DNA of 64,000 nucleotides from a virus (IMGVR_UViG_3300047561_000672:2635-66634); one strand, 5' to 3'. Positions 6,017 to 42,328 are shown, counted from the first letter of the stretch. Notes: generated by a model from the sequence alone, not told the origin. Translations and numbers: made by a program.

Positions 6017-6388
6017 CTATTTTAACCACTGGGCGTTGAATGTATTGGTGGACCCGCTCCTAAGAGAATGGGCCTGTAGTGCAACATTGGTAACATTGTT
6101 GGTGAAGGCTCTGGTCCTGTACGATCCCATGTAGTCGTAGGTGTAGAGTTGGTTCTGGCCCGATGGGTAAAGATAGGCACACATTGCATGGCCCTTAACC
6201 TTGTTGCTGCCGTCCCTGTAGTTGTATCTAAACACTTCCGACCACACTCCTTGGCGTTGTAGCCCCTGTCTGAATGCTATAGCTGTAGGTAGACAGGCAT
6301 TGGCCTCCATTTCCATCCAACGCTCTGGATTTGAAGGAGTGCATGAGGTTACTACTAAAATAGCAGTAATTAGTAGGTATTTAGTCAT
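6017..6388 (-). CDS. lipoprotein with putative papain/transglutaminase-like Cys-His-Asp triad
   Basis: MTKYLLITAILVVTS-C lipobox; ACLPTAIAF, GHAMCAY and YD motifs. Confidence 0.5.
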   Translation of the reverse strand: MTKYLLITAILVVTSCTPSNPERWMEMEANACLPTAIAFRQGLQRQGVWSEVFRYNYRDGSNKVKGHAMCAYLYPSGQNQLYTYDYMGSYRTRAFTNNVTNVALQAHSLRSGSTNTFNAQWLK

Positions 6389-6560
6389 GGAGTTTACCTT
6401 TGATAAAAGCATGGAGCGCACAGAGAAAGTCCATCTCTGGCTCCCTAATTTGAGAAGTGATGTAGTTGTCAATAGCATCCACTGTCTCCTTTAGCGAGTT
6501 TTTGTAGTGGTCTCTTTCGGCAACCATCCTGCTTTCGTAGATTTCTGGTTTGCTAGTCAT
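6381..6560 (-). CDS. hypothetical protein
   Basis: MTSKPEIYES... overlaps neighbours in operon. Confidence 0.5.
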   Translation of the reverse strand: MTSKPEIYESRMVAERDHYKNSLKETVDAIDNYITSQIREPEMDFLCALHAFIKGKLHD

Positions 6561-8263: not shown

Positions 8264-8578
8264 ATGAACAAATTTTCTGCTGTCATTGAGGGCATGGAAC
8301 AAGAGTACCTTCCTGCACCGAGAGGTGTAGAGGCTCCCATGAGCGACCTGAATCGCAGAACTACGGTCATTGAGGGGCTGCTGGGAAATCTCGGTGGTAA
8401 CGACCTGAGCCGTAGAACTACTTTTGCACAAGGGATAACAGGCGGATACATTAAGGGATCTGGGGAGATCCTGCGCGTATCGACAGCCTGCCCTGTGCAG
8501 GGCGATTGGATAGCCGCAATCGGGGAGAAATCCGACAAGGTCCACATTATTTCCAGTCGCCCAATTTTTAACCTATGA
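8264..8578 (+). CDS. hypothetical protein or structured RNA leader
   Basis: ATG ORF ending in an ATGA overlap, but the sequence also folds into many hairpins; contains a 21-nt imperfect repeat. Confidence 0.35.
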   Translation: MNKFSAVIEGMEQEYLPAPRGVEAPMSDLNRRTTVIEGLLGNLGGNDLSRRTTFAQGITGGYIKGSGEILRVSTACPVQGDWIAAIGEKSDKVHIISSRPIFNL

Positions 8579-8826
8579 AAAAACTACTAGCACTACTATT
8601 ACTGACAACCACTTGTTTAGGACAACGATACGAGTCATGGACTCAAAACAGTGATGGGACCACAAGTTATACCACTGGAAGGATAATTGTGTACCGAGAC
8701 ATCGATGCAGAATTGAGAGCCAGTGAGCAAGCATCATGGAATATGTATTTAAGGGTGGTGGAACGGGGGCATAAACAGACGCAAGATTACATAGACAAAA
8801 TAGAGGCAGAGCTTTCGGCCAAGTGA
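8575..8826 (+). CDS. secreted hypothetical protein
   Basis: Sec signal MKKLLALLLLTTTCLG-Q. Confidence 0.6.
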   Translation: MKKLLALLLLTTTCLGQRYESWTQNSDGTTSYTTGRIIVYRDIDAELRASEQASWNMYLRVVERGHKQTQDYIDKIEAELSAK

Positions 8827-9059
8827 AGCGATTGGTACCACTTCTAGTAATTGTGGTGTGTGGCGGGTGCGGCTATACGCAACTGTATCGCAAGGAACAA
8901 CCCCAGAACTTTCCTCCAGTTGCTGAATTCAACGCTGGCTTGGAGACATCGTGGATCAACGCTGTTGACAACTACAGGAAAGTAATGGCCCCCAACGGCA
9001 AGGTTTATGACCCAGTGATGAGAAACTACCAGCCAAAGTTGCATTCAATTACTCCATGA
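8823..9059 (+). CDS. putative lipoprotein
   Basis: MKRLVPLLVIVVCGG-C lipobox-like; GTGA/ATGA overlaps. Confidence 0.55.
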   Translation: MKRLVPLLVIVVCGGCGYTQLYRKEQPQNFPPVAEFNAGLETSWINAVDNYRKVMAPNGKVYDPVMRNYQPKLHSITP

Positions 9060-14111: not shown

Positions 14112-15962
14112 ATGGCAAACGAAATCCCAGATCAGGGGGCTGTAGAGAAATACGGGAGATTGTGGTATCCGCGCCAAGGTTCCAAGGTTACAGAACTCCG
14201 CATTGAATTGGATGCCTTTATGGCCAGCCTAACCCCAGAAGAAGGAGGTCTTGGTAAATCCCGCCACTACAAAAATATTGTTTCAGCCATATGGCCAACA
14301 TTTGCATGGCATAAATGGGCAGAACTCCGCGCACAGGCATTTTGTAAGAACAATGTGGACGAAGACCCAACCACAGGACAAAAGTACATCAGGGGGGTTG
14401 TGGGGCTTGCTGGCGGTACTGATTCTGGCAAGTCATGGGATATGGCAGCGTTTGCACTGGTCAACTGGTTTTCGGACCCGCTCAACACAATGTGTATTGT
14501 TGTTTCTACAAGTAAAATTGACGCAAAACAGCGCATTTGGTCGGCCCTAGTTAAAATGTACAGAGAGGCACAAGGACTTGGAATAGCTCCGGGTAGGCTC
14601 ATTGAGTCTATGGACATCATCAAGTTGTCCGATGAAGAGGGTAAGGTTATTGACCCAACGGTAGGGGTGTCCGATGCATCATCAATAATGTTGCTGGCTG
14701 CTGGTGACGAGTACAAGGATGACGCCCAAAAACGGTTGCAGGGTAAAAAGAACAGAAGGATCGTATTGATTATCGATGAATTGCAGGACTGTTCTGCATC
14801 CGTAATCAACGAGGCAATCTGGGGATTCAAAGGAGCACAGGAACTCTATATCGTCGGAGCAGGCAACCCATCGTCTATCTTTGACCCCCATGGGAAGTTT
14901 TGCGAACCAATCAAGGGTTGGATGAGTGTTGATGAGGATATGCCCAACTGGAAGATCAAGGTTGCTGGCATTGAGGGTATCTGTGTCAGATTTGACTCTG
15001 AAAGAGACAATCCAAACCAAGACTCATTCGGAAAAGGAAAGGGGCTTCGTTACCCCTTCCTTCCAAAACCCAACGATGTTGCTGTTGCAAAAAAGGAGTT
15101 GGGTGAGCTAAACCCTCAATATTGGAGGAAGTTCAGGGGATTTTGGCCTCCCGCCGATGCCGATGATTGCACCATTGTTTCAGACATCCTTCTCGCCCGC
15201 CATGGGGCTTTGGATAAACCAATATGGGATGGAGATCCTAAAGATATAGCTGGAATTGACCCAAGCTACACTGAAGGTGGAGATAGATTTGTGTTTACCC
15301 ACATGAAGTATGGAAGGTTGATAAGCGGGAAATGGGCAATAGCTGTTGAGAAACAGTATGTGCTAAATCGTCGGGCTGGAAGCCAAGAAGACTTTCAATA
15401 TGAAATGATTCAACAGATATCCGACCTATCCAAAAAACTCAACATTCCCAACCAATGGATGGGGGTTGATGCCTCTGCTGGTGGCATATTCTGGTCCATA
15501 GGTGAGAGAGAGTTGCTCAAGGGATGGCATGCTGTAAGTTTTGCTGGTGCGGCATCGGATTTAGCTGTTAGCGCACAGTACGCAATGAGGGATCAGACCA
15601 CAGGAAAACCTCAAGTCGGTAAGGACTTGTTCCACAACATGGCAAGCGAACTATGTTTTGTTGCACGATATTTCCTTGAGTGTGAACAACTTAAAGGAAT
15701 AACATCCGATCTGGCTTGGGAGATGACTCAACGTAAATATGCCCGCCGTGTCAGAAAGATCATCATTGAGTCAAAGACAGACATGAAAAAGCGCATAGGC
15801 AAGTCGCCCGATCTTTTTGATTCATTTGCAGTTGGATTGTTTGTGGCCCGCAAAGTATTTGGAGCAATGGCTGGTTCAGAAGCAATAGAAGAGAAGAAAC
15901 AAAAAAACATAAAGCTCTTCAAGGAAGTCAGACAAAACTTGACTTTAAAAACCAAATGGTAA
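14112..15962 (+). CDS. terL: terminase large subunit
   Basis: GGTDSGKS Walker A, VLIIDELQD Walker B, GNP, nuclease GIDPS..GGD and KSPDLFDS. Confidence 0.92.
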   Translation: MANEIPDQGAVEKYGRLWYPRQGSKVTELRIELDAFMASLTPEEGGLGKSRHYKNIVSAIWPTFAWHKWAELRAQAFCKNNVDEDPTTGQKYIRGVVGLAGGTDSGKSWDMAAFALVNWFSDPLNTMCIVVSTSKIDAKQRIWSALVKMYREAQGLGIAPGRLIESMDIIKLSDEEGKVIDPTVGVSDASSIMLLAAGDEYKDDAQKRLQGKKNRRIVLIIDELQDCSASVINEAIWGFKGAQELYIVGAGNPSSIFDPHGKFCEPIKGWMSVDEDMPNWKIKVAGIEGICVRFDSERDNPNQDSFGKGKGLRYPFLPKPNDVAVAKKELGELNPQYWRKFRGFWPPADADDCTIVSDILLARHGALDKPIWDGDPKDIAGIDPSYTEGGDRFVFTHMKYGRLISGKWAIAVEKQYVLNRRAGSQEDFQYEMIQQISDLSKKLNIPNQWMGVDASAGGIFWSIGERELLKGWHAVSFAGAASDLAVSAQYAMRDQTTGKPQVGKDLFHNMASELCFVARYFLECEQLKGITSDLAWEMTQRKYARRVRKIIIESKTDMKKRIGKSPDLFDSFAVGLFVARKVFGAMAGSEAIEEKKQKNIKLFKEVRQNLTLKTKW

Positions 15963-15978
15963 ATTATAGCTGCCATTT

Positions 15979-16335
15979 ATGCAGTTACCCATTGCCGAGG
16001 CAGACATAGCCATATTTCAAGGAGCGACATTCAACCAGACTCTGTACTACGAGACTGGTGATCCATCGGCTCCTGTGAATCTGACTGGTTATAGTGCAAA
16101 GATGCAGATTCGGTCAACCCCGCAATCCAAAGCCCTGATCCTTGAACTCAGTTCGCCTAGTTCTGGAATTACTCTTGGCGGGTCCACGGGATCGATCACT
16201 CTGACAATATCAGCAACCACTACAGCAACACTGAGCGCACAAGAGGCCGTCTACGATCTTGAATTGACTACTGGATCAACTGTCACTAGGATACTTCAAG
16301 GTAACGTAATCATTTCCCCAGAGGTAACACGATGA
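15979..16335 (+). CDS. LtfC/BppU-N-like beta-sandwich tail-associated protein (copy 1)
   Basis: IFQGATF...PVNLTGYSAKMQIR...GSITLTISAT.T...YDLEL...LQG. Confidence 0.65.
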   Translation: MQLPIAEADIAIFQGATFNQTLYYETGDPSAPVNLTGYSAKMQIRSTPQSKALILELSSPSSGITLGGSTGSITLTISATTTATLSAQEAVYDLELTTGSTVTRILQGNVIISPEVTR

Positions 16336-16655
16336 GCAGAATTTGTATCCCTATTCCTAGTTCCACTGTTATTGGTGTTTCTTCGACTCCAATCACAACT
16401 CCGAGTAACAACATTTTTCGTGTTGAGCCAACAATCACTGGACTCACTGGTGGTACTGCAACCGATCTTAACTCAATTGCAACTGCAAGCGGATCTACCT
16501 ATCCAACAAATATTTGTGTATTTCTACCAGCAATCAACCCGCCAGCAATCTATCAGTTGGTAGCTGGAACCAATGCCGCCAATTCTCCGTTTGTAATCCG
16601 TCCGCAAGACTATGCAACAACCACCAATGAAAAAGTGTGGATTCAAAGGGGTTAA
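16332..16655 (+). CDS. hypothetical structural-region protein
   Basis: ATGA overlap; Thr-rich. Confidence 0.6.
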   Translation: MSRICIPIPSSTVIGVSSTPITTPSNNIFRVEPTITGLTGGTATDLNSIATASGSTYPTNICVFLPAINPPAIYQLVAGTNAANSPFVIRPQDYATTTNEKVWIQRG

Positions 16656-16659
16656 TACA

Positions 16660-18207
16660 ATGAAATATATCTACGCATTTATTTTTAGTTTATTTATCTG
16701 TGCAACGGCATTTGCACAAAGTCAGAATGTTACTGCCAATACCAATGGAGTGGTTGTTCGCCCGACCAATTTCTGGAGTGTTGATGCATCCAACGCAAGA
16801 ACTGGACTTGGTTTGAGTTGGTCCGCGCTCACAAATACCAATGCCTCTAATTTTAGGACAGCAATTGAGCTTGCTAGTTACGTCACTAATCCAGTAATTC
16901 CAACAACCAATGGTGGCTTGGGATCTGGAACGATGAGCGTGGCAAGAACCAATCTTGGACTCGGATGGCCCGCACTAACCAATACCGATGCCACCAATTT
17001 CCGTATTGCAATAGGAGTTGCTGGATACATTTCAAATAGCGGAACTGTGGTATTTACCAATACAAATACCATAACATTCACAAATGAAGTGTCGTTCACA
17101 AACAATGTTTTAATCGGCCCGATCAGTGGAAATACAATTTCATTAAGATCCACTGGTGGTAATTTGCAATTTTGGGACCCAATTGATAGCGAGAGTGTTC
17201 TAACCATTGCATCGGACACCAATCCAGTTGTACTTGGTAATCAGTGGAACGATAGTTCTGTCAGAACGGCATTGGGACTTGGGTGGACGGTGTTAACTAA
17301 TACCAATTCAACTAATTTTCTTGCAGCAATATTTGGCTCCAATACAAATCCAGTTCTTGTTTCAACCAATGGATCAGTGGTAAGTCCAACAAATTTCTGG
17401 CAGGCTGCACCAATATCAACAAGTGTTCAATATTTTACAAATGTTACTGTTAACTCAACTAACAGCGCAACAAATAGCCGCAATTTATTTGTACATAGCA
17501 TGGCAGTAAGCGTGTCTGGAGTTACCAACACAATTAATCTTCCGACCAATAGCTCCACATTCAACGGAGATACTGCAACAATTATCCACAAGGGAACAAC
17601 CACAACTGCAACTATCATCAAAAACACTGGATCTACCAACACACTGATCGCACTTAGTAATTACAACGAAACAGTCAACTTCATGTTTGAACAAGGAGCT
17701 TGGTCATTTGCCGAAAACCCATCGTTTGTTGAGCCTATTTTTTTCTCTGGAACTAATGGATTGGACAATGCTGGACAATCTAGAACAAACCTTGGTTTAG
17801 GTGGAAGCAATGATGTTCAGTTTAAATCTGTAAAAACTGCTGGCGTTGGTTCTGCTACAAATCTAGATATTCAATTTGACGGCAATGGAAGCGGGATATT
17901 CGCTAATACAAATACTAACACTATTGGAATAACTATTCTTTCTAACAACGTAGCTTTTTTTACAGCTACCAATGTTACATTTTATCAGGCTATGGCGTTC
18001 AATGGAACTGCTGGTGCAAGCCGCACAAATTTAGGAATCCCATATACTGCGTTAACCAACACCAACAGCACAAATTTCCAATCTGCTATTTTTCAGACAA
18101 ACACAACGCCATCAGGTACTAGTTATGCTAGTCTTGTTGCTTGGATGGAAGTTAATGTCATTACAAACGGAGTAACTACAAGTTTCAGAATTCCCCTATT
18201 CAAATGA
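16660..18207 (+). CDS. signal-peptide-bearing Asn/Thr-rich fibre-like repeat protein
   Basis: MKYIYAFIFSLFICATAFA-Q signal; five RT(N/G/A)LG[LI] repeats, four followed by LTNTxxxNF. Confidence 0.7.
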   Translation: MKYIYAFIFSLFICATAFAQSQNVTANTNGVVVRPTNFWSVDASNARTGLGLSWSALTNTNASNFRTAIELASYVTNPVIPTTNGGLGSGTMSVARTNLGLGWPALTNTDATNFRIAIGVAGYISNSGTVVFTNTNTITFTNEVSFTNNVLIGPISGNTISLRSTGGNLQFWDPIDSESVLTIASDTNPVVLGNQWNDSSVRTALGLGWTVLTNTNSTNFLAAIFGSNTNPVLVSTNGSVVSPTNFWQAAPISTSVQYFTNVTVNSTNSATNSRNLFVHSMAVSVSGVTNTINLPTNSSTFNGDTATIIHKGTTTTATIIKNTGSTNTLIALSNYNETVNFMFEQGAWSFAENPSFVEPIFFSGTNGLDNAGQSRTNLGLGGSNDVQFKSVKTAGVGSATNLDIQFDGNGSGIFANTNTNTIGITILSNNVAFFTATNVTFYQAMAFNGTAGASRTNLGIPYTALTNTNSTNFQSAIFQTNTTPSGTSYASLVAWMEVNVITNGVTTSFRIPLFK

Positions 18208-18575
18208 CCAACTACTGGAGACTTGTACGGGATATTGAGATTGTCCAAGGAAAGACTTGGCAAGCGAAATTCCGTTATCTGAGCAAGTGCTCGTCAGGCC
18301 GAAAGCCCGCCCCAATGAATCTTACAGGATACACAGCAAAGATGGTCATCAGGGAGAAGGCTACAGACTCAGCCTCCATGCTTGAATTGACCACTGGGAG
18401 TGGAATCACTCTTGGAGGCACCGCTGGAACAATCCAAGTAGATATCACTGCAACTCAAGCAGGGTCAAGCCTCACTGCTGGAACTGGGGTGTACGAGATT
18501 GAATTGTACAACGGAGCTGCCACCATTGGATTTGCCACAGGCAACGCAACCATCTATCAGGAGATTGTACGGTAA
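18204..18575 (+). CDS. LtfC/BppU-N-like beta-sandwich tail-associated protein (copy 2)
   Basis: IVQGKTW...PMNLTGYTAKMVIR...GITLGGTAGTIQVDITAT...YEIEL; paralog of 15979..16335. Confidence 0.65.
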   Translation: MTNYWRLVRDIEIVQGKTWQAKFRYLSKCSSGRKPAPMNLTGYTAKMVIREKATDSASMLELTTGSGITLGGTAGTIQVDITATQAGSSLTAGTGVYEIELYNGAATIGFATGNATIYQEIVR

Positions 18576-21313
18576 TGGCCACAGAAGTCATTGAGGTAAT
18601 TGAGACGGCTGTAGAGGTGGTTGAGGTGTTGACTCAAGGCCCACAGGGTCCACAAGGTTCTGCTGCAAGTGTAGTCTACGGCACAACCGCAGGCACGGCC
18701 ACTGAGGGCAACGATTCACGCATACCAACCCAAGCTCTAAATCCTGCAAATGCTCCTACATTTACTGGATTAACTATTAACGGAGCAAACGATGGCACTA
18801 GATCAGTAAATGCTAGCGGTAAAATGTTTTTTGGTTCGGTCAGTGGAAATACGGGGATGCTTTCGGAGGCACAAAATTCTTTTGTCTACAATGCATATGT
18901 TTTGACTGGATTAAACACATCAGTCACTTTCTATCGTCCACTGGTAATTTGTTCTAGTAACACCCCGCAACTCAGTATCCACCCAAATAACAGGGTTGGT
19001 ATTGGCGTAGCTATTCCACAATCACAATTAGACGTAAGTGGAGACATAACTGCTACATCAACAATAAGTATAAAAAATGGCACAGGAAATGGCGCAAGTG
19101 CTAGTATATTTTGGTACTATAACGCAGAAGATCAAGAAGATATATATGTTGATTTATACGCAACCCGTGCTGGAACAGTAGGAAACGCTATAGTACTAAC
19201 ACTAGATGGCACGACATTCATTCAAACAATTGTTGATACATGGAATACAAATAATCCGAATAACACAATTGCGCCAATTCAGATCTATGGAACAGCGGTG
19301 CTTTCTGCCCAAACCGTCACATTCTCTGGAGGCACAGACCCACTAAAATCAACTATTGATGTAGTAAATTTATCAGCTAATAGGACGCATAGTTTACCAG
19401 ATGCAAATGGAACATTAGCACTCGCTTCACAGGCCACCGATTACGAAGTCACAGATGCCACAAAAGGAGTAATTATGAAAAGCCCCAATGGAAACCGCTG
19501 GCGTCTCACTATTGATAATAGTGGAAGCCTGATACGCACCATAATTACCCTAATGTTCTTGCTGTCTTTCATGTGCGGCTCGCAGGCACAGGTGCGCGAT
19601 CTGGTATACACCACCAACAACATAGTTGTCGGGCCGACGAACACCAATGCACTGAGTTTCACCAATAGTATTGCGTTTAGCAATGTCCTAAGTTTTGGGA
19701 CAAACGCGCCGACAGTTCGCACGAATTTGGGACTGGGAGCAAGCTGGCTCACAAATAGTGCGTCACCCGCCACCACCAATGCCACAAATCTTGTCGCAGG
19801 CACATTACCCGATGCGCGACTTTCGACTAATGTTCTTACTATAGATACAAATAACAATATTGTTAGTGGTAGGACGAATGTTCTTAGATTTACTAATGAA
19901 ATACGCTCGTCAGCATTTGCAATACCAGTGTATTCTAGTTCATTGTTGGTAGGAAATCTTTCAATAAATCAAGGAACTGGTGCTAATTTAAATAATTTTG
20001 AATTTAAGAACTATGGCGTTACTAGCCTAGTACTAGGATCAAATACCGCCTCATTTACTGGAAGTATTAGCGTTGGAGATAGTTCCACAACACGCACCAA
20101 CCTCGGAGTGACCGTAGCCTCTAACCTGCCCGCGCCTTACTCGGGTGTTTCCTCAAGTAACAGCTTGCTCGTTGCCGATGGTTCTGGAAGCAGCGCGTTT
20201 GTTTCGACGTTGCCGAGTCTGACAGTAGGCGTTGGCACAAACACTGACGTAACGTTGCAGCGCGAGACGAATAATAGCCTCGCTCAAAGAAACGGCACGA
20301 ATCCGCAGACGCTGTTTCTGTTTAACACCTACTCCAACTCCACGAATTATGAACGCGGGAAGATCGCGTGGACGAACAATGTGCTGACGATTGGCACTGA
20401 GAAGGGAAGCGGCGGCGGGACGGCTAGGGCTTTGGAGTTGCAGACCGATGGAGCCGCAAGGATGTCAATAACTGCTGGAGGTAGCATTCTACACGCAATT
20501 TCTACTGGCGTGTTAGGGTGGAACACTTCGACACTTCTGCGCCCTTTAAGCGGTGACGGAACTCTCGGCTTGTATAACAATGCACAAAACGATTTTGGTC
20601 GCCTGCAATTTGGCGGAACAAACAGCAACTTCCCAGCCCTCAAGCGCACCAACACCGCCCTGCAAGTTCGCCTCGCGGATGATTCGTCCTACACAACCAT
20701 AGACGCACAACTTCGCGCCCAAGGCACCGCGCCGACCAATTCAACCGACACAGGCACGGCTGGCGATATTCGTTACGATGCTACTAACTTTTATGTCTGC
20801 ACCGCAAGTAATACATGGAATACGTTTGCGACAAACCGCATTACGACCATTGTTAAATCCGCAGACCAGTCAAAAACAAATACATCCGATATGACTATAG
20901 TTGGAAATAACGATCCTGAACTAACTGCATCAGTCGTTGCAGGAACAATCTACAGCATTCAAGCTAGATTACAGTATACGGCACCAGCAACTGGTGGGTT
21001 AAATGCTGCCATTGTAACTGGAACAAATAACGTATTTGTCAACACTGGTGGACCTATTGGATTTGCTTCAAGAGAAGATTTAAATGCAAGAGTATTTTAT
21101 ATTTCAAGTGCTAGCGGAGGAGCGGTCGCTGGAATAAGTTGGGGAGGGTCGGGAAGCTCTACTGGGGGCACAAATTTAATATGGGCTGCTACAGGAGTAT
21201 TCCGTGCTGAAAACTCTGGAACTCTCACGCTTCGTTGGGCGCAAAATACAACTAACGCTACGCCGACCACACTGAAAGCTGGGTCTTCTTTTACGCTAAC
21301 AAAACTGAACTAA
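18575..21313 (+). CDS. mosaic tail-fibre-like protein with internal signal-peptide-like segment (912 aa)
   Basis: GPQGPQG collagen start, SANRTHSLPDANGTLAL, RTNLG repeats, GTAGDIRYD..NFYVC...NTW fibre motif; hydrophobic helix IRTIITLMFLLSFMCGSQAQ at ~aa 320-339. Confidence 0.7.
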   Translation: MATEVIEVIETAVEVVEVLTQGPQGPQGSAASVVYGTTAGTATEGNDSRIPTQALNPANAPTFTGLTINGANDGTRSVNASGKMFFGSVSGNTGMLSEAQNSFVYNAYVLTGLNTSVTFYRPLVICSSNTPQLSIHPNNRVGIGVAIPQSQLDVSGDITATSTISIKNGTGNGASASIFWYYNAEDQEDIYVDLYATRAGTVGNAIVLTLDGTTFIQTIVDTWNTNNPNNTIAPIQIYGTAVLSAQTVTFSGGTDPLKSTIDVVNLSANRTHSLPDANGTLALASQATDYEVTDATKGVIMKSPNGNRWRLTIDNSGSLIRTIITLMFLLSFMCGSQAQVRDLVYTTNNIVVGPTNTNALSFTNSIAFSNVLSFGTNAPTVRTNLGLGASWLTNSASPATTNATNLVAGTLPDARLSTNVLTIDTNNNIVSGRTNVLRFTNEIRSSAFAIPVYSSSLLVGNLSINQGTGANLNNFEFKNYGVTSLVLGSNTASFTGSISVGDSSTTRTNLGVTVASNLPAPYSGVSSSNSLLVADGSGSSAFVSTLPSLTVGVGTNTDVTLQRETNNSLAQRNGTNPQTLFLFNTYSNSTNYERGKIAWTNNVLTIGTEKGSGGGTARALELQTDGAARMSITAGGSILHAISTGVLGWNTSTLLRPLSGDGTLGLYNNAQNDFGRLQFGGTNSNFPALKRTNTALQVRLADDSSYTTIDAQLRAQGTAPTNSTDTGTAGDIRYDATNFYVCTASNTWNTFATNRITTIVKSADQSKTNTSDMTIVGNNDPELTASVVAGTIYSIQARLQYTAPATGGLNAAIVTGTNNVFVNTGGPIGFASREDLNARVFYISSASGGAVAGISWGGSGSSTGGTNLIWAATGVFRAENSGTLTLRWAQNTTNATPTTLKAGSSFTLTKLN

Positions 21314-21315
21314 TT

Positions 21316-21774
21316 ATGAAAAAACTAATCCTCCTCGCAATCGTGGCCCTCGCACCAACAGTCTACGGCCAACTCGTCCCACAGACGCAGCTTGAGTCTG
21401 ACCTGTCAGCCATTGCCCGTGCGGCAAGTGGAACAACGTGGTACGGCCAACTCCTTGTCCAATCCCTGAATTCCGCCCACGCCGCTGTATGGAACCTGCC
21501 AGACGATAGGTTAAGTGCCGTTTTGACCCACCTCGGACCCCAAACGGTTGGCGGTCTAGTCCAACTCCAATCGGCAACGGCTATGGCCCTCAATCAATCG
21601 CTCGACGCTGCACAGGACAATGGCCCCCGCGCTATCGTCAGCCCCTCCCGTGAATTCACATGGGACGGGACTAATGCGGTTGTGGTTCCGTTGCCGACAC
21701 CAACCCCAAGCCCGACACCTGAAGAGGTGACACCTACGCCTACGCCTGAAGAATCCACCAATGTGGTTGACTAA
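21316..21774 (+). CDS. secreted protein with Pro/Thr linker tail
   Basis: MKKLILLAIVALAPTVYG-Q signal; C-terminal PLPTPTPSPTPEEVTPTPTPEEST. Confidence 0.7.
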   Translation: MKKLILLAIVALAPTVYGQLVPQTQLESDLSAIARAASGTTWYGQLLVQSLNSAHAAVWNLPDDRLSAVLTHLGPQTVGGLVQLQSATAMALNQSLDAAQDNGPRAIVSPSREFTWDGTNAVVVPLPTPTPSPTPEEVTPTPTPEESTNVVD

Positions 21775-21805: not shown

Positions 21806-24094
21806 ATGGCTTCCAATCCTAGCGTAGAACTAGAGAATATTTCAGAGAAGGGCGGCGTTCCTAAGAAACGTATTTCCTCTCCTGAGAATCTTATTTCCAT
21901 TTCAGACAAGTACATGGCTCAAGATGAGCAGTCGGCTTATCTCCGTTCACGGGCGCAAGCATTGGTCAATGGCGAAGCTCCCTATGACTCGGAAGAGCTT
22001 AAAAACAAGGGACTTACACATGTTGTAAACTCCAACTTTGGCGAAGCATCGGCCATCATGGAGGCGGCTCTAGCACCGTATATTGAACTTCAGAACGGTG
22101 TTCCTCGTATTGCCAATGTCATCATGGAGTCCTACGATGGTGACTCAAATGAAGACTCGGAAATCATCTCTGAAGAGTTTGACTGGATGCTCAAGGAGTG
22201 GAGTGACTTCCCTTACAACATGCAGTTGCTATCTCGTGAGTTTGTTGGAGATGGTGTTGGTATTGCCATGTGGCCCGATGAGAGATCGGTATTTTGGGAA
22301 CCATGCGGACTGAAAGATTTCAAGGTGGCTCGTGATACAAAAGTATCCGACACTGCTATTGAGGTGGCTATTGTTCAACGCACGATGTCCGTTAGCCAAC
22401 TTTACGACTACATCAAGAATCCAAAGATTGCTAAAACAATGGGATGGAATATTGATGCGGTCAAAAAGGCTATTTGGAAATCATCCACCAAGACCGATCA
22501 GTGGAAGAACTGGAACTCCCATTGGGAAGACTTCCAACGTGAAGTTAAGGAGAATGATCTGTACGCTGGTGAGGCCGCATACCACAGGGCTAAACTAATC
22601 TACGGGTACAATCGCGAGTTTGATGGCAAATTCTCACAACTTATTGCCTCTCGTGATTGTGATGACTTCCTCTACGAACGAAATGCAAAATACTCCAACG
22701 TAAACAACTGTTTCGTCATCTTTACCTATGGAGTTGGTCAAGGAACATTCCACACGATCAGGGGTCTTAAACAGAAGATTTACAACCCGATCCAAGTATC
22801 CAACCGTATTTTGTGTCAGGCCGCACAAGCAGCCATTACATCTGGATTGATTCAACTTCAAGGTGACGCCGAAGCCATTCAAGACTTCCAATACATCGAA
22901 GTCGGCCCGTATAGCTTTATTCCTACAGGACTTACTCCTATCCAGCTTCAGCCTCCATCTATTGCTACACAGGGTCTTCCAGTGTATAGCCTGATGACTC
23001 AGACGCTTCAAAACAACACTGGAAGCTATCGTTCTCGCGGTCAGGGTACCGATGGACAAGCCCGCTCTGCCACTGAAGTGGTACAACAGGCCCGCCAAGA
23101 ATCGACACTCAATGCCGCTGCGCTAGAGTTGTTCTACACCCCGTACAACAAACTCCTCACAGAGCAGTATCGTCGAGCAGTCTCCCCCGATCTTTCACAG
23201 TTAGATAAAGGTGGCAAACTTGCCATGGAATTCCGCGCCCGTTGCAAACGCCGTGGAGTATCCATTGAGCGTATGCGCCAGTTCCTGAAGGTTACGGCAA
23301 TGAGAGCCATGGGTGATGGAAGCCCCGTAATGACCGAAATGGCCTCCAAGCAACTAATGGAACTTTACTCTTTAATGGACGAAAAAGGTAAGGAGAACAC
23401 CCTGCGAGCGGTGGTAGCTGGAATACCGGGTGTAGGATACCAGAAGGTGGACCTCTTTGTCGCTAAAGGCCCGCCCCGTAAGGTTATTGACTTTGACATT
23501 GCCAACCTTGAAAACGGTAATCTACGTCAGGGCATTCAACAACTTGTCCACGATAGCCAAAACCATCCTGTGCATATTGAGGTCCATATCCCTCTCATGG
23601 CAGAAATTATCGATGCTCACAAGCAGCAGCAGATTCCCGACGAGCAGGCCATGCAGATCCTTCGCCCGCTTTCAGACCATACCACTGAGCACTTGGTGAT
23701 GTTCTCCACCAATAGCTTCCGCAAACAAGAGGTCAACGAACTCAAGCGTCAGCTTCAAAACGTCACTGCTTATGTGGATGAATTGGAGCAACAGGTCATC
23801 AACAGAATGATGGCAGAGCAGAGCAAGATGCAGGAGCAAGCGGCGTCTGGACCAGAACAGGGCGGCCAGCCCGATCCTAAACAAATGTTTGAAATCCAGA
23901 AGGGACAACTTAGGCTTGCAGAGATGCAAGAAAAGCGTAGCATGGCACAAGAGTCCCACGCACAGAAAATGGAAACTATCCGCCAGCAAATGGCACTCAA
24001 CGATCTGAAAACCCGAAGCTCTATTCTTGATAAGGTTGCACGACCATCTGGTGGTCGCCCTCCAATGATTGAGCAAGCACCACCTACGGCATAA
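21806..24094 (+). CDS. portal protein
   Basis: 762 aa, helical, Q-rich coiled C-terminal barrel; sits between TerL and scaffold/MCP. Confidence 0.8.
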   Translation: MASNPSVELENISEKGGVPKKRISSPENLISISDKYMAQDEQSAYLRSRAQALVNGEAPYDSEELKNKGLTHVVNSNFGEASAIMEAALAPYIELQNGVPRIANVIMESYDGDSNEDSEIISEEFDWMLKEWSDFPYNMQLLSREFVGDGVGIAMWPDERSVFWEPCGLKDFKVARDTKVSDTAIEVAIVQRTMSVSQLYDYIKNPKIAKTMGWNIDAVKKAIWKSSTKTDQWKNWNSHWEDFQREVKENDLYAGEAAYHRAKLIYGYNREFDGKFSQLIASRDCDDFLYERNAKYSNVNNCFVIFTYGVGQGTFHTIRGLKQKIYNPIQVSNRILCQAAQAAITSGLIQLQGDAEAIQDFQYIEVGPYSFIPTGLTPIQLQPPSIATQGLPVYSLMTQTLQNNTGSYRSRGQGTDGQARSATEVVQQARQESTLNAAALELFYTPYNKLLTEQYRRAVSPDLSQLDKGGKLAMEFRARCKRRGVSIERMRQFLKVTAMRAMGDGSPVMTEMASKQLMELYSLMDEKGKENTLRAVVAGIPGVGYQKVDLFVAKGPPRKVIDFDIANLENGNLRQGIQQLVHDSQNHPVHIEVHIPLMAEIIDAHKQQQIPDEQAMQILRPLSDHTTEHLVMFSTNSFRKQEVNELKRQLQNVTAYVDELEQQVINRMMAEQSKMQEQAASGPEQGGQPDPKQMFEIQKGQLRLAEMQEKRSMAQESHAQKMETIRQQMALNDLKTRSSILDKVARPSGGRPPMIEQAPPTA

Positions 24095-24097
24095 CCA

Positions 24098-24379
24098 ATG
24101 GATTGGAATAATTCTGACGCCCGCGAATGGGCTAAAACGTGGGAAACACCCCACATGGTAAGGGGATTGAAGTTCTTGGCAAAACGTGTGAGGCCGCGCC
24201 GAACAGTGGGACCAGTTGCCCAAGGGTTTGATCTATCTCCAGTATTTATCAAGAGTGCTGGGTTTTACGAAGGAAGCCAAGAAGTGCTTGACCTGATTGA
24301 AACTATGGCTAAGGGTGAGTACACAACAAAACCCAAGGTTGATTTCCCAGAGTCTTTTTCTCATATTAAACCCGAATAA
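24098..24379 (+). CDS. hypothetical head-module protein
   Basis: Between portal and scaffold, 3-nt gaps on each side. Confidence 0.65.
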   Translation: MDWNNSDAREWAKTWETPHMVRGLKFLAKRVRPRRTVGPVAQGFDLSPVFIKSAGFYEGSQEVLDLIETMAKGEYTTKPKVDFPESFSHIKPE

Positions 24380-24382
24380 TTT

Positions 24383-25717
24383 ATGGCAAACGCAATCCTA
24401 AACTCGTCTCTCACGGGAGATGCAGACTTCGCTGGGGCCGTTTTTGGCACCTCCGAACAACAAGAACCCACACCAGTTGAGACCACTCAGCAGGACAATC
24501 AAGACAATGTTCCCCGTGGAACAAACGACGATGAGAAGACCACTACGCAAGAAGCTCCCGAAGAAGAGAAAAAGGTCACTAAAGTTAGGGAGCCAGACAA
24601 GAAGTCGAAAACCACGAAAGATCAAGTAGAGGCTACGCTAAAGAAAGCCACGACCAAGTCTTCCGATTCTTCTGAACAGGCTACATCAGATACCACTGAT
24701 AATGATCTTCCAAAGAATCCCCATTTTGACGATAAACAAGTTTCTGATAAGCCAGAGGGTGATGATTCCGAAAAAGGTATCTCCTCGTGGAAAGAGATTA
24801 AATCAGAGATGAAAAAAGCCCGCGAAGAGCGGGACCGTCTCAAGGCAGAACTTGAGGCCACTAAAGAAAAAGTGGGTAAAGTTGAGGGTGGTGAAGTTGA
24901 TTACCTACGTCAAGAGGTGGATAGTTACAAAACCCGCCTTGCCGAACTCTCCCGTGAACTTAAGGCCGCAAACTTTGAGCGCAGCCCAGAATACGTTGAG
25001 AGTGTGAAAAAACCACTGGCTGGTATTCAATGTGATCTAAAGGCTATTGCCGATGCCAATGATGCTGACTTTTCCAAACTTTGGCAGGCTATCACGGAAC
25101 CTGACATGCGGAAACGTACTGACAGTCTTGAAGACCTTATCGGTGATTTCAAGCGTATGGAACAGCTTGAGGTTGTTAAACTTACTGAAAAGTTCCACAA
25201 CTTGCGTGACTACCATGAGCGTTTCTCCAATGAGTCGGAGTCCATGGCAGAACAGCTTCGCGCCCGCAAGGCCCAAGAAGAGCAGGAGTTCATTGAGAAT
25301 GACCAGCGTCTACAGAAGGCTTTTACGGCCAACGCTTGGACCCGCATGGAAGACCGTTACGATTTCTTGAAGGAGATCGATGGACAGAGCGACTGGAACT
25401 CAAGCATCCGTTCCGCCCGCCAAGCAGCATCTGAAACCAATCTAGACAGGCTTCCTGTTGAGGACAGGTCTACGATCTTGGCTAGAGCAGCAGTTGTCCC
25501 ATTCCTTGAATCGGCTATCAACCACTATAGCAACAAACTCCAAAGCGTAACCTCCGAGAAGGATGCAAAGATTGCCGAACTCCAGCATCAACTGAAGTCA
25601 GCAATCGGTGCCACACCTAGCCTTGGATCTTCATCTAGCGACTCTAACGACGATGACGATGACACAGAAGATATGGGTTCAGTTAATTTCGGCGCAGCAA
25701 TTATGGGCAGGCGATAA
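24383..25717 (+). CDS. capsid scaffolding protein
   Basis: Disordered acidic N-terminus, long coiled coil, immediately upstream of MCP. Confidence 0.7.
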   Translation: MANAILNSSLTGDADFAGAVFGTSEQQEPTPVETTQQDNQDNVPRGTNDDEKTTTQEAPEEEKKVTKVREPDKKSKTTKDQVEATLKKATTKSSDSSEQATSDTTDNDLPKNPHFDDKQVSDKPEGDDSEKGISSWKEIKSEMKKAREERDRLKAELEATKEKVGKVEGGEVDYLRQEVDSYKTRLAELSRELKAANFERSPEYVESVKKPLAGIQCDLKAIADANDADFSKLWQAITEPDMRKRTDSLEDLIGDFKRMEQLEVVKLTEKFHNLRDYHERFSNESESMAEQLRARKAQEEQEFIENDQRLQKAFTANAWTRMEDRYDFLKEIDGQSDWNSSIRSARQAASETNLDRLPVEDRSTILARAAVVPFLESAINHYSNKLQSVTSEKDAKIAELQHQLKSAIGATPSLGSSSSDSNDDDDDTEDMGSVNFGAAIMGRR

Positions 25718-25726
25718 AAATATCGC
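25711..25726 (+). terminator. hairpin at scaffold stop codon
   Basis: GCGATA-AAAA-TATCGC perfect stem. Confidence 0.4.
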
Positions 25727-25755
25727 TTGACATATTTACGCACTTAGATTAAATG
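25727..25755 (+). promoter_or_regulatory. sigma70-like promoter for major capsid gene
   Basis: TTGACA-N17-TAAATG (weak -10). Confidence 0.45.
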
Positions 25756-25759
25756 TATT

Positions 25760-25949
25760 CTCAATGATCTAGTCTGGTTTGATCTCAGACGCCTGTTGGT
25801 GAGCGTTATCTCCTCCTAAGTTAGTTTGCCGTCTACCACCTACAGCGGCGTGGGTAACAGATTTCTTGTAATGGCGTCCCGCCCAATGGCGAAGGCGATA
25901 AACATTACAAAAAAACGCAAAATTAAAATTAGGAGAAAATAACAATACT
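25760..25949 (+). promoter_or_regulatory. structured 5' leader of major capsid gene
   Basis: TTGTAATG 25866-73 / CATTACAA 25903-10; CGCC-CAAT-GGCG; GTCTG/CAGAC; A-rich tract before start. Confidence 0.45.
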
Positions 25950-27185
25950 ATGGCTAATCTGCCTACACCTCTATCGTGTGATACGATTAATGACAATTTC
26001 CAAAGGGAGTCTGGACGTATCGCAATGGGTACCTATCGTCTGGGTCTTTATAAAGATCCGTATCTTCGCTTCGTGTCTCAGTCGGCATTCCCCGACAACA
26101 TGGGCGTAACTATCACAAACACTATTGCCCAGCGCACCAAAGCTGTTGGTAGTGGATGGGAAAACGTGAGCGTCAGCAACGGAGCCAATGACTCCTGCTT
26201 GCCGCCCGTCAAAACTGTTGGCTATGCCTTCGACCAAAAGACCTTCACCCTTCGCCATCAAGCGATTGAGTCCAACTGGATCTGTTTGGAAGATGTCCGT
26301 ACCAGTGCGTTCCCTGTTGATGATGTCAACAACTACATCAAGATCCTCTCTGACAACGTAAACGTCGAGTGGATTGAGCGTTACGATACCGATTACTTCA
26401 ATCTCTCGCAGTCGAAGTTGGTTGCTGCTGCTGGCCTTCCTTCCAGCACTGGCACGGCGTTTGCCACCACTGCTCCCACGAGCGTGATGACCCCCGGTAT
26501 CCTGCGTCAGATCTACGACAACCTCTATCAGGACAACGCTGGTGATGACGGCGATGCGGTGACGGACGATGGTTCGCCCGTGTTCAACGTCTTTGCTGAA
26601 CGTGCGACGATTGAGAACCTTGTTAAACTGCAACAGGACGTTCGTCAGGACGTTCGCTGGAGTGATCGTGTGAACGACCTTCTGGGAGCCAATGGCGCGA
26701 CTATGCTTCCCGGTAAGTCCTATGGCGGGTTCACCTTCCATAGCCGTCCGTTCCCAAAACGTTTCAACGATGGGCCTGCTGGCACGTTTGTTGAGGTTAC
26801 CCCGTATGTTGCCGCTGCCTCGACTGGTCCCGGTACTAGCGGTGGAACGAAGTATGTCATCAACCCCGCCTACAAGACGGCGAAATACTCCACCACGGTT
26901 GTGTTTCACCCGAAGGCGTTTGAGTGGCTGGTTCCCAACCCCAATGTCAAGGTCGGCAAACTGACTTATGATGCTCAGAACTATCGCGGCGACTTCCGCT
27001 GGGTCAACGAGTACCATCGTCAGTGTAACCCTGACAAGAACAGTGGTTACTTCCGCGCCAAGATGGCTTGTGCGGTCAAGAGCGTATTCCCCCAGTGGGC
27101 ATACTACATCTTGCACTTGCGCTGCAACTTGGCCAACGATCTGGTTGCTTGCCCAAGTGGTAGCGGCTACGGGTACTTGGCGTAA
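25950..27185 (+). CDS. major capsid protein
   Basis: 411 aa after scaffold, strongly biased codons, own promoter/leader and downstream hairpin. Confidence 0.85.
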   Translation: MANLPTPLSCDTINDNFQRESGRIAMGTYRLGLYKDPYLRFVSQSAFPDNMGVTITNTIAQRTKAVGSGWENVSVSNGANDSCLPPVKTVGYAFDQKTFTLRHQAIESNWICLEDVRTSAFPVDDVNNYIKILSDNVNVEWIERYDTDYFNLSQSKLVAAAGLPSSTGTAFATTAPTSVMTPGILRQIYDNLYQDNAGDDGDAVTDDGSPVFNVFAERATIENLVKLQQDVRQDVRWSDRVNDLLGANGATMLPGKSYGGFTFHSRPFPKRFNDGPAGTFVEVTPYVAAASTGPGTSGGTKYVINPAYKTAKYSTTVVFHPKAFEWLVPNPNVKVGKLTYDAQNYRGDFRWVNEYHRQCNPDKNSGYFRAKMACAVKSVFPQWAYYILHLRCNLANDLVACPSGSGYGYLA

Positions 27186-28528: not shown

Positions 28529-28544
28529 TCTACGATTGAATCCA

Positions 28545-28835
28545 ATGAAAGCTCTATTGGCAAAACTGGCTGGAATATCCTCGGCAATCTTTAATTTCTA
28601 TGCCCCGATCTTGAAGCAGGCATTGGCAACTGGAGTTGCAGCATTACTTCCAATTGCTATTGATATTGTTAAGTCGTTGGCAGAAACCAACAAGACAGGT
28701 TCACAAAAGCGCGAGGCCGCTGTTAAAGAGCTTAAAGGCGAAGCTACTGACCTTGGGTTGAAAGTTTCGGAATCCATCATTCGCTTCACCATTGAGTCGG
28801 CTGTGCAGAAGCTAAAACTGGAGGACGAGATTTGA
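28545..28835 (+). CDS. putative holin
   Basis: Amphipathic/TM helices, TGSQKREAAVKEL...IESAV pattern resembling LL-H-type holins. Confidence 0.5.
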   Translation: MKALLAKLAGISSAIFNFYAPILKQALATGVAALLPIAIDIVKSLAETNKTGSQKREAAVKELKGEATDLGLKVSESIIRFTIESAVQKLKLEDEI

Positions 28836-29143
28836 AAAACTCCATCCTAAAATTCTTGGTTTCAAAACTTGGCGGTATTCTTACCCCCATCATTGCTGGA
28901 CTTATCGGTGCTGGAATAGGAAAACTTGCTACATTCGATTCCAATCTTGCTAGTAACATTGATCAAGTAGCTGTGACGGGATTTGTGGTTTCATTTATTA
29001 TTGCCGCCGTTAACTATGGAACTAACAAGATCCAGAGTGACGGAATCAAAAGCATACAAGCACTAGTTAATACAGATCAAGACGGGGTTCTTGGGCCGAT
29101 CACTTACACCGAAGTGCGAAAGGCCATCCCTGTCCAGCAGTGA
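28832..29143 (+). CDS. membrane protein with peptidoglycan-binding-like motif
   Basis: Two TM segments plus DQDGVLGPITY motif. Confidence 0.5.
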   Translation: MKNSILKFLVSKLGGILTPIIAGLIGAGIGKLATFDSNLASNIDQVAVTGFVVSFIIAAVNYGTNKIQSDGIKSIQALVNTDQDGVLGPITYTEVRKAIPVQQ

Positions 29144-29322
29144 TAAACCAACCATTAAACGAGGAACAATTAAATGCCATCTTCCAAAGACTTCATCCAG
29201 AGCCTTCCAGACAACGGTTCATCGTGCGGCTGCTACGTTCCCTTCGGTTCACCGTCAAACTATCCAGAAAAGGCGGTAAAATTGCCAGCTACCTCGGAAT
29301 CAGAGGTGGCGCGGATTTCTAG
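29140..29322 (+). CDS. hypothetical protein (60 aa)
   Basis: GTGA overlap within lysis cassette. Confidence 0.45.
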   Translation: MINQPLNEEQLNAIFQRLHPEPSRQRFIVRLLRSLRFTVKLSRKGGKIASYLGIRGGADF

Positions 29323-29333
29323 GGCATGGGACA

Positions 29334-29876
29334 TTGGCAAAAAGTGCAGCCAAAGCGATGATTGAGAAACTCGCCGACATTGCTTTGTCGCAAGTCGGAG
29401 TAAAAGAAATTGGTGGCAACAATCGCGGGGCTAAGATCCGCGAGTATCAATCGGCCACAAATCTGCCTCCCGCTGCTTGGCCATGGTGTGCGGCATATGT
29501 TGATTGGTGTGTATCACAATGGTTGACCGATAAAAGGAATGTGAAGTGGTTGTCCTTGAAAGTATCCTCACCATCCACTTGGCGTCCCAAGACCGCATCA
29601 GCATTTGGGCTTCTAGAGTGGGCTAGGAAACACCCCAACACCACTACGATCCTGCCTGAAACAGCTACGGTGCAGAGAGGGGATATTGTTGTGTTTGACT
29701 TCTCCCATACAGGTATTGTAATTGGTGGTGGAAAATTATTTATTCAATGCGTGGAGGGCAATACCAACGGCAGGGGAGAGCGCGATAGCGAGTCGGGAGA
29801 CGGCGTATGGTTGAAGCGTAGAAACATATCACTCGTAAGGAATTACATCAGAATCCATCCATCGAAAGTTCAATGA
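29334..29876 (+). CDS. CHAP-domain endolysin
   Basis: WPWCAAYVDWC catalytic Cys, GDIVVF.FSHTGIV His, VEGNT. Confidence 0.85.
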   Translation: MAKSAAKAMIEKLADIALSQVGVKEIGGNNRGAKIREYQSATNLPPAAWPWCAAYVDWCVSQWLTDKRNVKWLSLKVSSPSTWRPKTASAFGLLEWARKHPNTTTILPETATVQRGDIVVFDFSHTGIVIGGGKLFIQCVEGNTNGRGERDSESGDGVWLKRRNISLVRNYIRIHPSKVQ

Positions 29877-34857: not shown

Positions 34858-34965
34858 TGGTTGGATAAGGTAGTTTAAAAAAAGTTGGATATCAAGCGTA
34901 TTTTGGGCTTGCAAAGCCGTTGGGTTGAGCTAGATTACCACCTTCATATGTGTGTGTGTTTGAAG

Positions 34966-42295: not shown

Positions 42296-42328
42296 TCTTT
42301 GGAGTCCCCAAAACAACAATCAAAATCA

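Follow-up and report, generated by a model that had tools for sequence, protein, structure and literature searches.

We observed that a cassette of six genes in an uncultured tailed phage, lying between the genes for the terminase large subunit (TerL) and a putative portal protein, encodes three proteins with hydrophobic segments that, as judged from sequence, very probably are genuine type-I signal peptides for the Sec pathway and signal peptidase I (SPase I). Two are fibre-type proteins of 515 and 912 amino acids (aa), the latter with its segment far from the N-terminus, and the third is a 152-aa protein encoded by the last gene of the cassette. The window, IMGVR_UViG_3300047561_000672:2635-66634, is the whole stretch of 64,000 nucleotides (nt) that was analysed and represents nearly all of one 66,634-bp contig; positions are counted from its first letter. 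The reading we favour is that export takes the distal fibre parts and the small partner out of the cytoplasm and that they then join the virions at lysis, a chain of events to which, taken as a whole, we give an even chance.

A hydropathy scan of the cassette proteins returned exactly three strongly hydrophobic segments, one per protein: residues 3-19 in the 515-aa protein, 318-336 in the 912-aa protein, and 2-18 in the 152-aa protein. All three follow a Lys or Arg, comprise 12-14 hydrophobic residues with a core mean hydropathy of 1.8-2.0, and end in small residues at -3 and -1 with Gln at +1; the residues from -3 to -1 are A-F-A, S-Q-A and V-Y-G, respectively. Across the families, position -3 is G, A or S and position -1 is A, G or S. 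The MK start is kept in 96-99% of the homologues of the 515- and 152-aa proteins, and Arg321 precedes the internal segment. An earlier note on this DNA had read a Sec-type start in the 515-aa protein (MK, core, A-F-A, Gln), an internal signal in the 912-aa protein and a signal on the last, Pro/Thr-tailed protein, and all three predictions held up when homologues were searched for conserved signal peptides: the segment was found in 117 of the 120 best relatives of the first protein, in 28 database proteins with the junction of the second and in 120/120 homologues of the third, and so was not missing from the families. Type-I-like starts are found in 4 of the 97 open reading frames (ORFs) of the genome; three of the four lie in the cassette, and Gln comes next in all four. 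This rarity and clustering, the Gln and the retention among homologues indicate that the cassette signals are more than chance matches. Two further ORFs of the genome are lipoprotein-like. Elsewhere in the window, two overlapping small genes at 8575-9059 encode an 83-aa protein with a type-I-like signal, MKKLLALLLLTTTCLG, then Gln, and a 78-aa lipoprotein-like protein (MKRLVPLLVIVVCGGC). The pair gave no PHROG match and may be spanin-like, though it lies 20 kb from the holin and endolysin genes. A third candidate envelope protein is encoded at 6017-6478 on the minus strand, where an internal start would give a lipoprotein-type leader (MTKYLLITAILVVTSC).

The conservation of the segments was followed furthest in the 515-aa family, which has more than 450 relatives in a 90%-clustered database and 323 clusters at 50% identity (E up to 1e-3). 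The three exceptions among the 120 best relatives are one fragment, one miscalled start and one protein just below threshold. Among further representatives the segment is present in 81 of 118, always with Gln; 22 others are contig-edge fragments, and several of the remaining 15 have the segment under threshold or start inside it. Gln20 is invariant in an alignment of 85 sequences (85/85), as is Gln19 in the 60 aligned homologues of the 152-aa protein (60/60), to which that protein is 65-97% identical. Column entropy is 1.71 bits in the hydrophobic core of the 515-aa family versus 0.63 for the first 30 mature residues, and 1.26 versus 0.41 bits in the 152-aa family, that is, 2.7-3 times that of the mature start. 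A core that varies yet stays hydrophobic, next to fixed -3 and -1 positions and a conserved mature start, is the pattern of signal-peptide evolution, unlike that of packed structural helices.

Wrong start codons, or a frameshift joining the 107-aa and 515-aa frames, could in principle have created such a pattern by faulty gene calling. The 515-aa frame is open for 48 nt upstream (from 16612), where it runs in the +1 frame over the 3' end of the 107-aa gene, and the choice of start varies among database entries. Yet every alternative start still yields an N-terminal signal, the stop of the 107-aa gene is conserved beside the MK start in relatives, and hundreds of independent contigs agree; a 107/515 frameshift fusion was rejected because there is no slippery site. 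We find an artefact scarcely credible.

The Gln at +1, which matters only if the site is cut, also speaks to the host. In Bacteroidetes, Gln is exposed in a mean of 71% of SPase I substrates (the Q-rule and its Q-value), which is not so in neighbouring phyla, and the exposed Gln is turned into pyroglutamate by glutaminyl cyclase (PMC5837995). Since Gln follows every type-I signal, and since Shine-Dalgarno-like motifs precede only 17 of the 97 ORFs, the host probably belongs to the Bacteroidota. Prophages of Porphyromonas gingivalis likewise carry small genes with Q-rule signals, of obscure function and thought to modify the host envelope (PMC10367356). Phage genes fitted to host secretion are therefore already on record, and this was the nearest statement that the literature searches returned. 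The window proteins share with those genes and with Q-rule substrates at large (PMC5837995) a type-I signal followed by Gln; unlike the prophage products, they are fibre-type proteins of a structural module.

There is no Cys at +1, and hence no lipobox, in any of the three families, where Gln stands instead, and no type IX secretion system (T9SS) C-terminal domain of the PF18962, TIGR04183 or TIGR04131 type was matched in Pfam (E up to 0.1-1) or NCBIfam (E up to 10). With neither a T9SS sorting domain nor a lipobox, the periplasm is the default location. These searches weigh heavily on the suggestion that the proteins are cell-surface fibres, delivered by type IX secretion or held by a lipoprotein anchor, that decorate the infected cell. 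The cargo signal of the T9SS has a Sec signal as its first half, and in the 515-aa family the C-terminus is conserved, with a beta-hairpin at its end; by eye it bears a faint resemblance to a T9SS sorting domain. That candidate was rejected, as it gave no match to a hidden Markov model (HMM) even at these lax thresholds, and the modelled C-terminus has two strands, a mere hairpin, and not a seven-strand sandwich. A surface location is therefore very improbable.

The signal of the 912-aa protein is internal, and its setting is informative. When the two fibre proteins are aligned, residues 320-472 of the 912-aa protein pair with the N-terminus of the 515-aa protein, so that the signals coincide. 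A search with residues 300-912 returned 28 proteins with the same junction 60-490 residues from their start, in the order 'knob' motif, Arg, hydrophobic core, Cys-Gly or a similar breaker, A/S-x-Ala and Gln-Val-Arg-Asp-Leu-Val-Tyr. All 28 fused proteins have A or S at -3, Ala at -1 and Gln at +1; their N-terminal parts are unrelated and their cores comprise at least 14 different sequences. In other relatives the signal marks the exact point where the unit is divided between two genes, whose stop and start overlap as ATGA (322+568 aa in L088, 518+341 aa in L092 and 512+268 aa in L086; gene contexts were taken from IMG/VR loci). In the split forms the signal is N-terminal, whereas in the 912-aa protein it lies at residues 319-338, away from the N-terminus. 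The fused form is found in the window and in L083, L084, L087, L090, L091 and L048, and both forms occur within the phage family of the window itself, whose putative portals are 81-83% identical. The predicted internal signal is thus a widespread fused form of a two-gene unit and not an oddity of one genome. In L048 (10924-13662), a 912-aa fibre has a signal-like segment with a further core variant at residue 662 (..VALAIMTLLAFAASGMA, then QVRDMV), so the fused arrangement has arisen, or moved, more than once. An in-frame Met301 preceded by AGGAG does exist in the window protein, as had been claimed. Met301 is kept in ~20/28 fused homologues and is Leu in 8/28, so it is not a general way to make the distal part and is at most an optional start; as a general internal start it was rejected.

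Literature searches found no phage example of an internal signal peptide. The structural polyproteins of eukaryotic viruses (flaviviruses, alphaviruses and bunyaviruses) carry internal signal peptides that are cut by the host signal peptidase. The 912-aa protein resembles them in having an internal hydrophobic signal with a small-x-small site between two structural modules, and its fused and separate forms seem equivalent; the differences are that those viruses infect another domain of life and that cleavage here is predicted.

A joint that is sometimes N-terminal and sometimes internal has its simplest account in another proposal, namely that nothing is exported and that the hydrophobic segment is an assembly plug into a knob or adaptor, a transient tether on the cytoplasmic side, or a linker when fused. 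Both flanks of the joint are strongly conserved together, as in an interface, and Arg at +3 is common. In no tailed phage studied so far is assembly, that of the fibres included, known to take place outside the cytoplasm. The segment itself argues otherwise. Its core is the least conserved part between nearly invariant flanks and, at 12-14 residues, matches signals in length, and not anchors; the helix breaker, the Gln at +1 and the small side chains at -3 and -1 would be kept without structural reason. A segment of this kind also occurs in the unrelated 152-aa and 83-aa proteins, and homologous adaptor-fibre modules of Proteobacteria phages lack it. We regard this proposal as quite improbable.

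The fibre character of the two large proteins was seen in repeats and, for the 515-aa protein, in fold. The RTNLG-type repeats reported earlier are present as R[TS]xLG, five in the 515-aa and two in the 912-aa protein. The AlphaFold model of the 515-aa protein, built from the 85-sequence alignment, is partial (mean pLDDT 64): residues 2-17 form a helix, 250-351 a confidently modelled beta-sandwich (pLDDT ~95), and the C-terminus a hairpin. The sandwich matches the N-terminal domains of CBA120 TSP4 (Z 9.7, rmsd 2.4, 89 aligned residues; VIA) and the Mu tail fibre 6O38 (Z 9.6; VIA), with a Foldseek E of 1.5e-4, as well as an Acinetobacter phage tailspike, a Klebsiella phage baseplate protein and a Pseudomonas phage capsid spike. 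The nearest Atlas clusters of the 515-aa protein are all viral, some with T4 gp9/10-type domains. Neither the 515- nor the 912-aa window protein matched a curated fibre family in Pfam or PHROG, or the S74 intramolecular chaperone in Pfam, and a PDB sequence search of the 912-aa protein found nothing; among 27 homologues, PTR PF12789 matches two and gp37_C matches one.

Two paralogous adaptor genes follow terL, as first proposed: the 118-aa and 123-aa products share 42% identity (E 2e-24), and TerL is supported by phrog_2. Both adaptors match phrog_1084 (E 5e-28 for adaptor 1, E 5e-16 for adaptor 2) and phrog_3304, 'L-shaped tail fiber protein assembly' (E 7e-12 and E 1.8e-4), and adaptor 1 scores 19.7 bits against Pfam LtfC PF23926, below the cut-off of 27. 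The claim that each adaptor gene sits upstream of a large protein is right for adaptor 2 and the 912-aa gene; after adaptor 1, the 107-aa gene intervenes before the 515-aa gene. ATGA overlaps couple the 107-aa gene with adaptor 1 and adaptor 2 with the 515-aa gene. Relatives keep the 107-aa protein in synteny at 58-66% identity, and its gene invariably separates adaptor 1 from the signal-bearing fibre; the protein matched no Pfam, PHROG or NCBIfam family and showed no similarity to the proximal half of the 912-aa protein. Homologues of adaptor 1 occur in cultured Limnohabitans and Acidovorax phages, upstream of a short strand-rich protein with a collagen motif (labelled 'structural protein' in phage AP1) and then fibre genes; no protein of these modules, from phages of Proteobacteria, has a hydrophobic N-terminus. 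Relatives, as well as cultured phages of Proteobacteria, have the N-terminal type of the 912-aa protein after an adaptor. DT57C is a T5-like phage whose LtfC forms a dodecameric collar and grips the N-terminal strands of the side fibres by beta-sheet augmentation (PMC10713586). The cassette is like this L-shaped fibre system (PMC10713586) in that a gene for a small, putatively LtfC-like protein lies beside genes for proximal and distal fibre proteins, and in strand-rich fibre N-termini suited to collar augmentation. It differs in genome position, in its sub-threshold Pfam LtfC match and in having no S74 chaperone domain in its fibres, and T5-type fibres have no signal peptides.

The 152-aa gene always follows a joint-type fibre, whatever the C-terminus of that fibre. 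The model of its product has three helices and a hairpin (pLDDT 78). The protein has no Pfam, PHROG or NCBIfam match, no PDB fold match and no Atlas neighbour, and its matches in BFVD are uncharacterised phage proteins only. Its position just after the fibre gene fits an assembly chaperone of the Tfa/gp38 kind; sequence and fold comparison gave no chaperone match. An exported partner in assembly and a blocker of the receptor are both conceivable roles. That the partner, too, has a predicted signal fits the folding of fibre and partner in one compartment.

The only experimental hint on the location of such proteins comes from cultured phages. In the Cellulophaga phage phi18:3 (KC821620), gp085, gp086 and gp087 (547, 785 and 559 aa) have an MK start that leads through a hydrophobic core to a small-x-small site and Gln. 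They have matches in PHROG families of virion-structural and tail proteins, and carry the GenBank note 'structural protein, annotation based on experimental MS/MS proteomics analysis'. Phage phi46:3 (KC821622) encodes the same kind of signal-bearing proteins as gp079-083. According to a later paper, structural proteomes have been determined (PMC11946311). Both podophages resemble ours in combining large tail-type proteins, with signal and Gln, with a Bacteroidota phage genome of ~70 kb. They are unlike the window in that these genes lie upstream of terL and not between terL and a putative portal, and neither LtfC-like adaptors nor a fused internal signal was seen in them. We found no paper on the leaders of the phi18:3 and phi46:3 proteins, and literature searches on fibre or receptor-binding proteins with signal peptides found nothing that describes such an arrangement.

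The recorded detection of signal-bearing proteins in phi18:3 particles raises the weight of a virion location. Together with the tailspike/fibre-type fold, the LtfC-like adaptors translationally coupled to fibre genes and the mosaicism in the style of receptor-binding proteins (RBPs), it makes the fibre proteins probable components of the virion. The competing view is that the proteins are exported and do not enter the particle: as periplasmic proteins they would mask or destroy the receptor, for superinfection exclusion or for protection of progeny from debris, or they would be decoys or adhesins released at lysis. It draws on the same signal evidence. Signal-bearing exclusion genes adjoin receptor-binding genes in other phages (T5 llp, T1/phi80 cor and lambda lom), and the conservation of the 152-aa protein, whatever the fibre C-terminus, fits a conserved host target as well as a chaperone; the Q-rule genes of P. 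gingivalis prophages, thought to alter the host envelope (PMC10367356), offer a parallel. What tells against it is that fold and adaptors are of virion type, that the genes are translationally coupled to signal-less adaptors, that in fused forms the exported part is continuous with a proximal fibre of virion type and that the phi18:3 analogues were detected in particles. Moreover, no other fibre or receptor-binding gene was recognised among the scanned window proteins, so that the virion would lack a recognisable RBP. We consider a non-virion role unlikely. Between the alternatives first offered, virion fibres that pass through secretion or non-virion filaments, the evidence thus leans to the former, and the cell-surface variant of the latter finds no support, given the missing T9SS domain and lipobox.

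In the reading we favour, the two LtfC-like proteins would be collar or adaptor subunits made in the cytoplasm, where the 107-aa protein and residues 1-318 of the 912-aa protein, as proximal fibre parts, would be assembled with the adaptors on the particle. The 515-aa protein, residues 339-912 of the 912-aa protein and the 152-aa partner would be made as Sec preproteins. Host SPase I would cut after the small-x-small site, exposing Gln, and the products would fold in the periplasm. They would meet the particles only once holin lesions and endolysin, at lysis, breach the envelope, and the conserved joint would be their docking site. The internal signal of the fused 912-aa form would divide a polyprotein into a cytoplasmic proximal and an exported distal half. 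Export, cleavage, periplasmic folding and joining at lysis are inferred from sequence, and we hold them, taken together, to be about as probable as their contrary. Whether the fused fibre genes are polyproteins cut by the host signal peptidase, with a distal half exported, a proximal half on the cytoplasmic particle and the two re-joined via the joint only when the holin opens, so that virions of a large Bacteroidota phage group are 'armed' at lysis, is more doubtful.

Several points weigh against this scheme. Adaptors and proximal parts have no signals, so assembly would have to cross compartments, and we know of no tailed phage for which this has been described. Arg stands at mature position +3 in most family members (QTRN, QVRD), which in Escherichia coli slows Sec export; the 515-aa protein of the window is free of such a charge. 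Bacterial Sec targeting seldom relies on a signal that lies ~320 residues from the start, and the proximal half would keep a hydrophobic tail after cleavage. The phi18:3 proteins gp085-087 have no sequence similarity to the window proteins, MS/MS on purified particles leaves room for co-purifying material, and the host phylum is a likely deduction. Finally, the periplasm offers no evident benefit. Cysteine is nearly absent from the mature parts, so that disulfide formation was rejected as a reason for export, and the O-glycosylation motif D[ST][AILVMT] occurs in 1, 0 and 0 copies in the 515-, 912- and 152-aa proteins. Over the family it is not enriched: its ratio to shuffled sequences is 0.61 and that of the reversed motif 0.54, so periplasmic O-glycosylation gave no specific signal either way and was set aside as an export reason. 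Sec-dependent phage proteins as such are familiar. Signal and SAR endolysins, Llp, Cor and Lom, and the Inovirus proteins g3p and g8p use this route, g3p being an adsorption protein made as a cleaved preprotein. The cassette proteins would similarly use host Sec and signal peptidase; the tailed-phage examples are lysis or exclusion proteins and not fibres, and Inovirus particles assemble at the membrane, which tailed-phage particles do not.

The cassette (Table 1) lies downstream of terL, spans 5.8 kb and is tightly packed, with all six genes on the plus strand; from terL through the putative portal, neighbouring genes overlap by 1-4 nt or are separated by 2-31 nt. Of the borders given in the earlier note, TerL (85% identical in related contigs) is supported, and the 762-aa putative portal, with no HMM or PDB match, stands on position and size. 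No plus-strand terminator-like site was found inside the cassette. A promoter and terminator of its own were rejected, as sigma-70-type and terminator-like sites are at or below shuffle counts, and the Bacteroidota -7 promoter motif, at chance level, gave no cassette promoter. At the DNA level the cassette is a mosaic in which adaptors, signal/N-terminus, sandwich, joint and 152-aa gene form shared islands and the distal fibre parts vary, which is the usual pattern of receptor-binding modules. It may well be, with the balance about level, a side-fibre (receptor-binding) module transcribed with the late structural genes.

Table 1 Features of the cassette and its surroundings, in window positions
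Feature	Position	Strand	Basis
Terminase large subunit (TerL)	14112-15962	+	phrog_2, E 5.8e-16; upstream border of cassette
Adaptor 1, 118 aa, LtfC-like putative beta-sandwich, no signal peptide	15979-16335	+	phrog_1084, phrog_3304
Conserved 107-aa protein	16332-16655	+	ATGA overlap with adaptor 1; synteny
515-aa fibre protein, whole ORF	16660-18207	+	ORF call
Predicted signal peptide of 515-aa fibre, residues 1-19, MKYIYAFIFSLFICATAFA, then Gln	16660-16716	+	hydropathy, homologues, model helix
Predicted mature 515-aa fibre protein	16717-18207	+	conserved N-terminal strand motif, repeats, beta-sandwich, conserved C-terminal hairpin
Beta-sandwich of 515-aa protein, residues 250-351	17407-17712	+	AlphaFold model, fold matches
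Adaptor 2, 123 aa, paralogue of adaptor 1	18204-18575	+	ATGA overlap with 515-aa gene; phrog_1084
912-aa fused fibre, whole ORF	18575-21313	+	ORF call
Proximal half of 912-aa protein, residues 1-318	18575-19528	+	strand-rich N-terminus, GPQGPQG, conserved 'knob' motif at the C-terminal end, ..SPNGNRWRLTIDNSGS
In-frame ATG, Met301 of 912-aa protein, AGGAG before it	19475-19477	+	possible internal start
Internal signal-peptide-like segment, residues 319-338, LIRTIITLMFLLSFMCGSQA, then Gln339	19529-19588	+	hydropathy, 28 fused homologues
Distal half of 912-aa protein, residues 339-912, starting QVRDLVY	19589-21313	+	alignment to homologues
152-aa exported-type partner, whole ORF	21316-21774	+	signal, three helices and beta-hairpin, Pro/Thr tail
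Predicted signal peptide of 152-aa protein, residues 1-18	21316-21369	+	hydropathy, homologues
Putative portal, 762 aa	21806-24094	+	position and size only; downstream border of cassette
Holin	28536-28835		phrog_6918, E 2.8e-9
Endolysin	29334-29876		phrog_9589, E 3.8e-12

The order terL, adaptor, 107-aa gene, signal-bearing fibre, adaptor 2, second fibre, variable genes and putative portal is kept in many contigs of ~66-72 kb. The 515-aa family has 174 relatives in IMG/VR contigs versus one weak hit in the genomes of 185,579 species (one genome each). In 50,697 phage records, TerL, putative portal, putative capsid protein and 515-aa protein have no match; the adaptor alone does. The weak hit is a Verrucomicrobia metagenome-assembled genome (JAJPHR010000091, L082), in a prophage-like tail module with BR0599 and Gp84_N hub domains. 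In L082 (8809-12385) this module precedes a pair of spike-like proteins, one an SGNH esterase and the other a DUF1565 beta-helix, each with a signal-like start followed by Ala; signal-bearing spikes may therefore not be limited to Bacteroidota phages.

Downstream of the cassette, positions 21806-27185 encode the putative portal, a scaffold-like acidic protein (444 aa) and a capsid-like protein (411 aa). These three have no Pfam, PHROG or PDB-sequence match and no relative in the 50,697 phage records, and are 70-83% identical in many IMG/VR contigs; the phage belongs to a deep, uncultured but common lineage. A lysis cassette (28536-29876) of holin, second small membrane protein and endolysin follows directly after the head genes. 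In a second lineage (L083, L088, L092), a signal-bearing fibre and 152-aa homologue adjoin these holin genes. A 778-aa gene on the opposite strand (32578-34914) has homologues beside signal-bearing fibres in the second lineage (L071, L083), and a 2985-aa ORF (42299-51256) lies downstream of tail-region genes. No tRNA genes were found in the window.

A fibre family of several hundred clusters, nearly all with a cleavable-type signal, suggests that tailed phages have a second route to their fibres, by periplasmic maturation and late addition. If true, this would change the annotation, expression and engineering of receptor-binding proteins of Bacteroidota phages, as a recombinant fibre would need its mature form, and would change host-range prediction as well as the view of how lysis timing and particle completion are coupled. 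Animal viruses have polyproteins that signal peptidase processes, and the internal signal of the fused genes would be their first counterpart in a phage. The Gln that stands behind each signal may serve as a cheap marker of host phylum for uncultured phages, and the question of export is directly testable in the cultured Cellulophaga phages.

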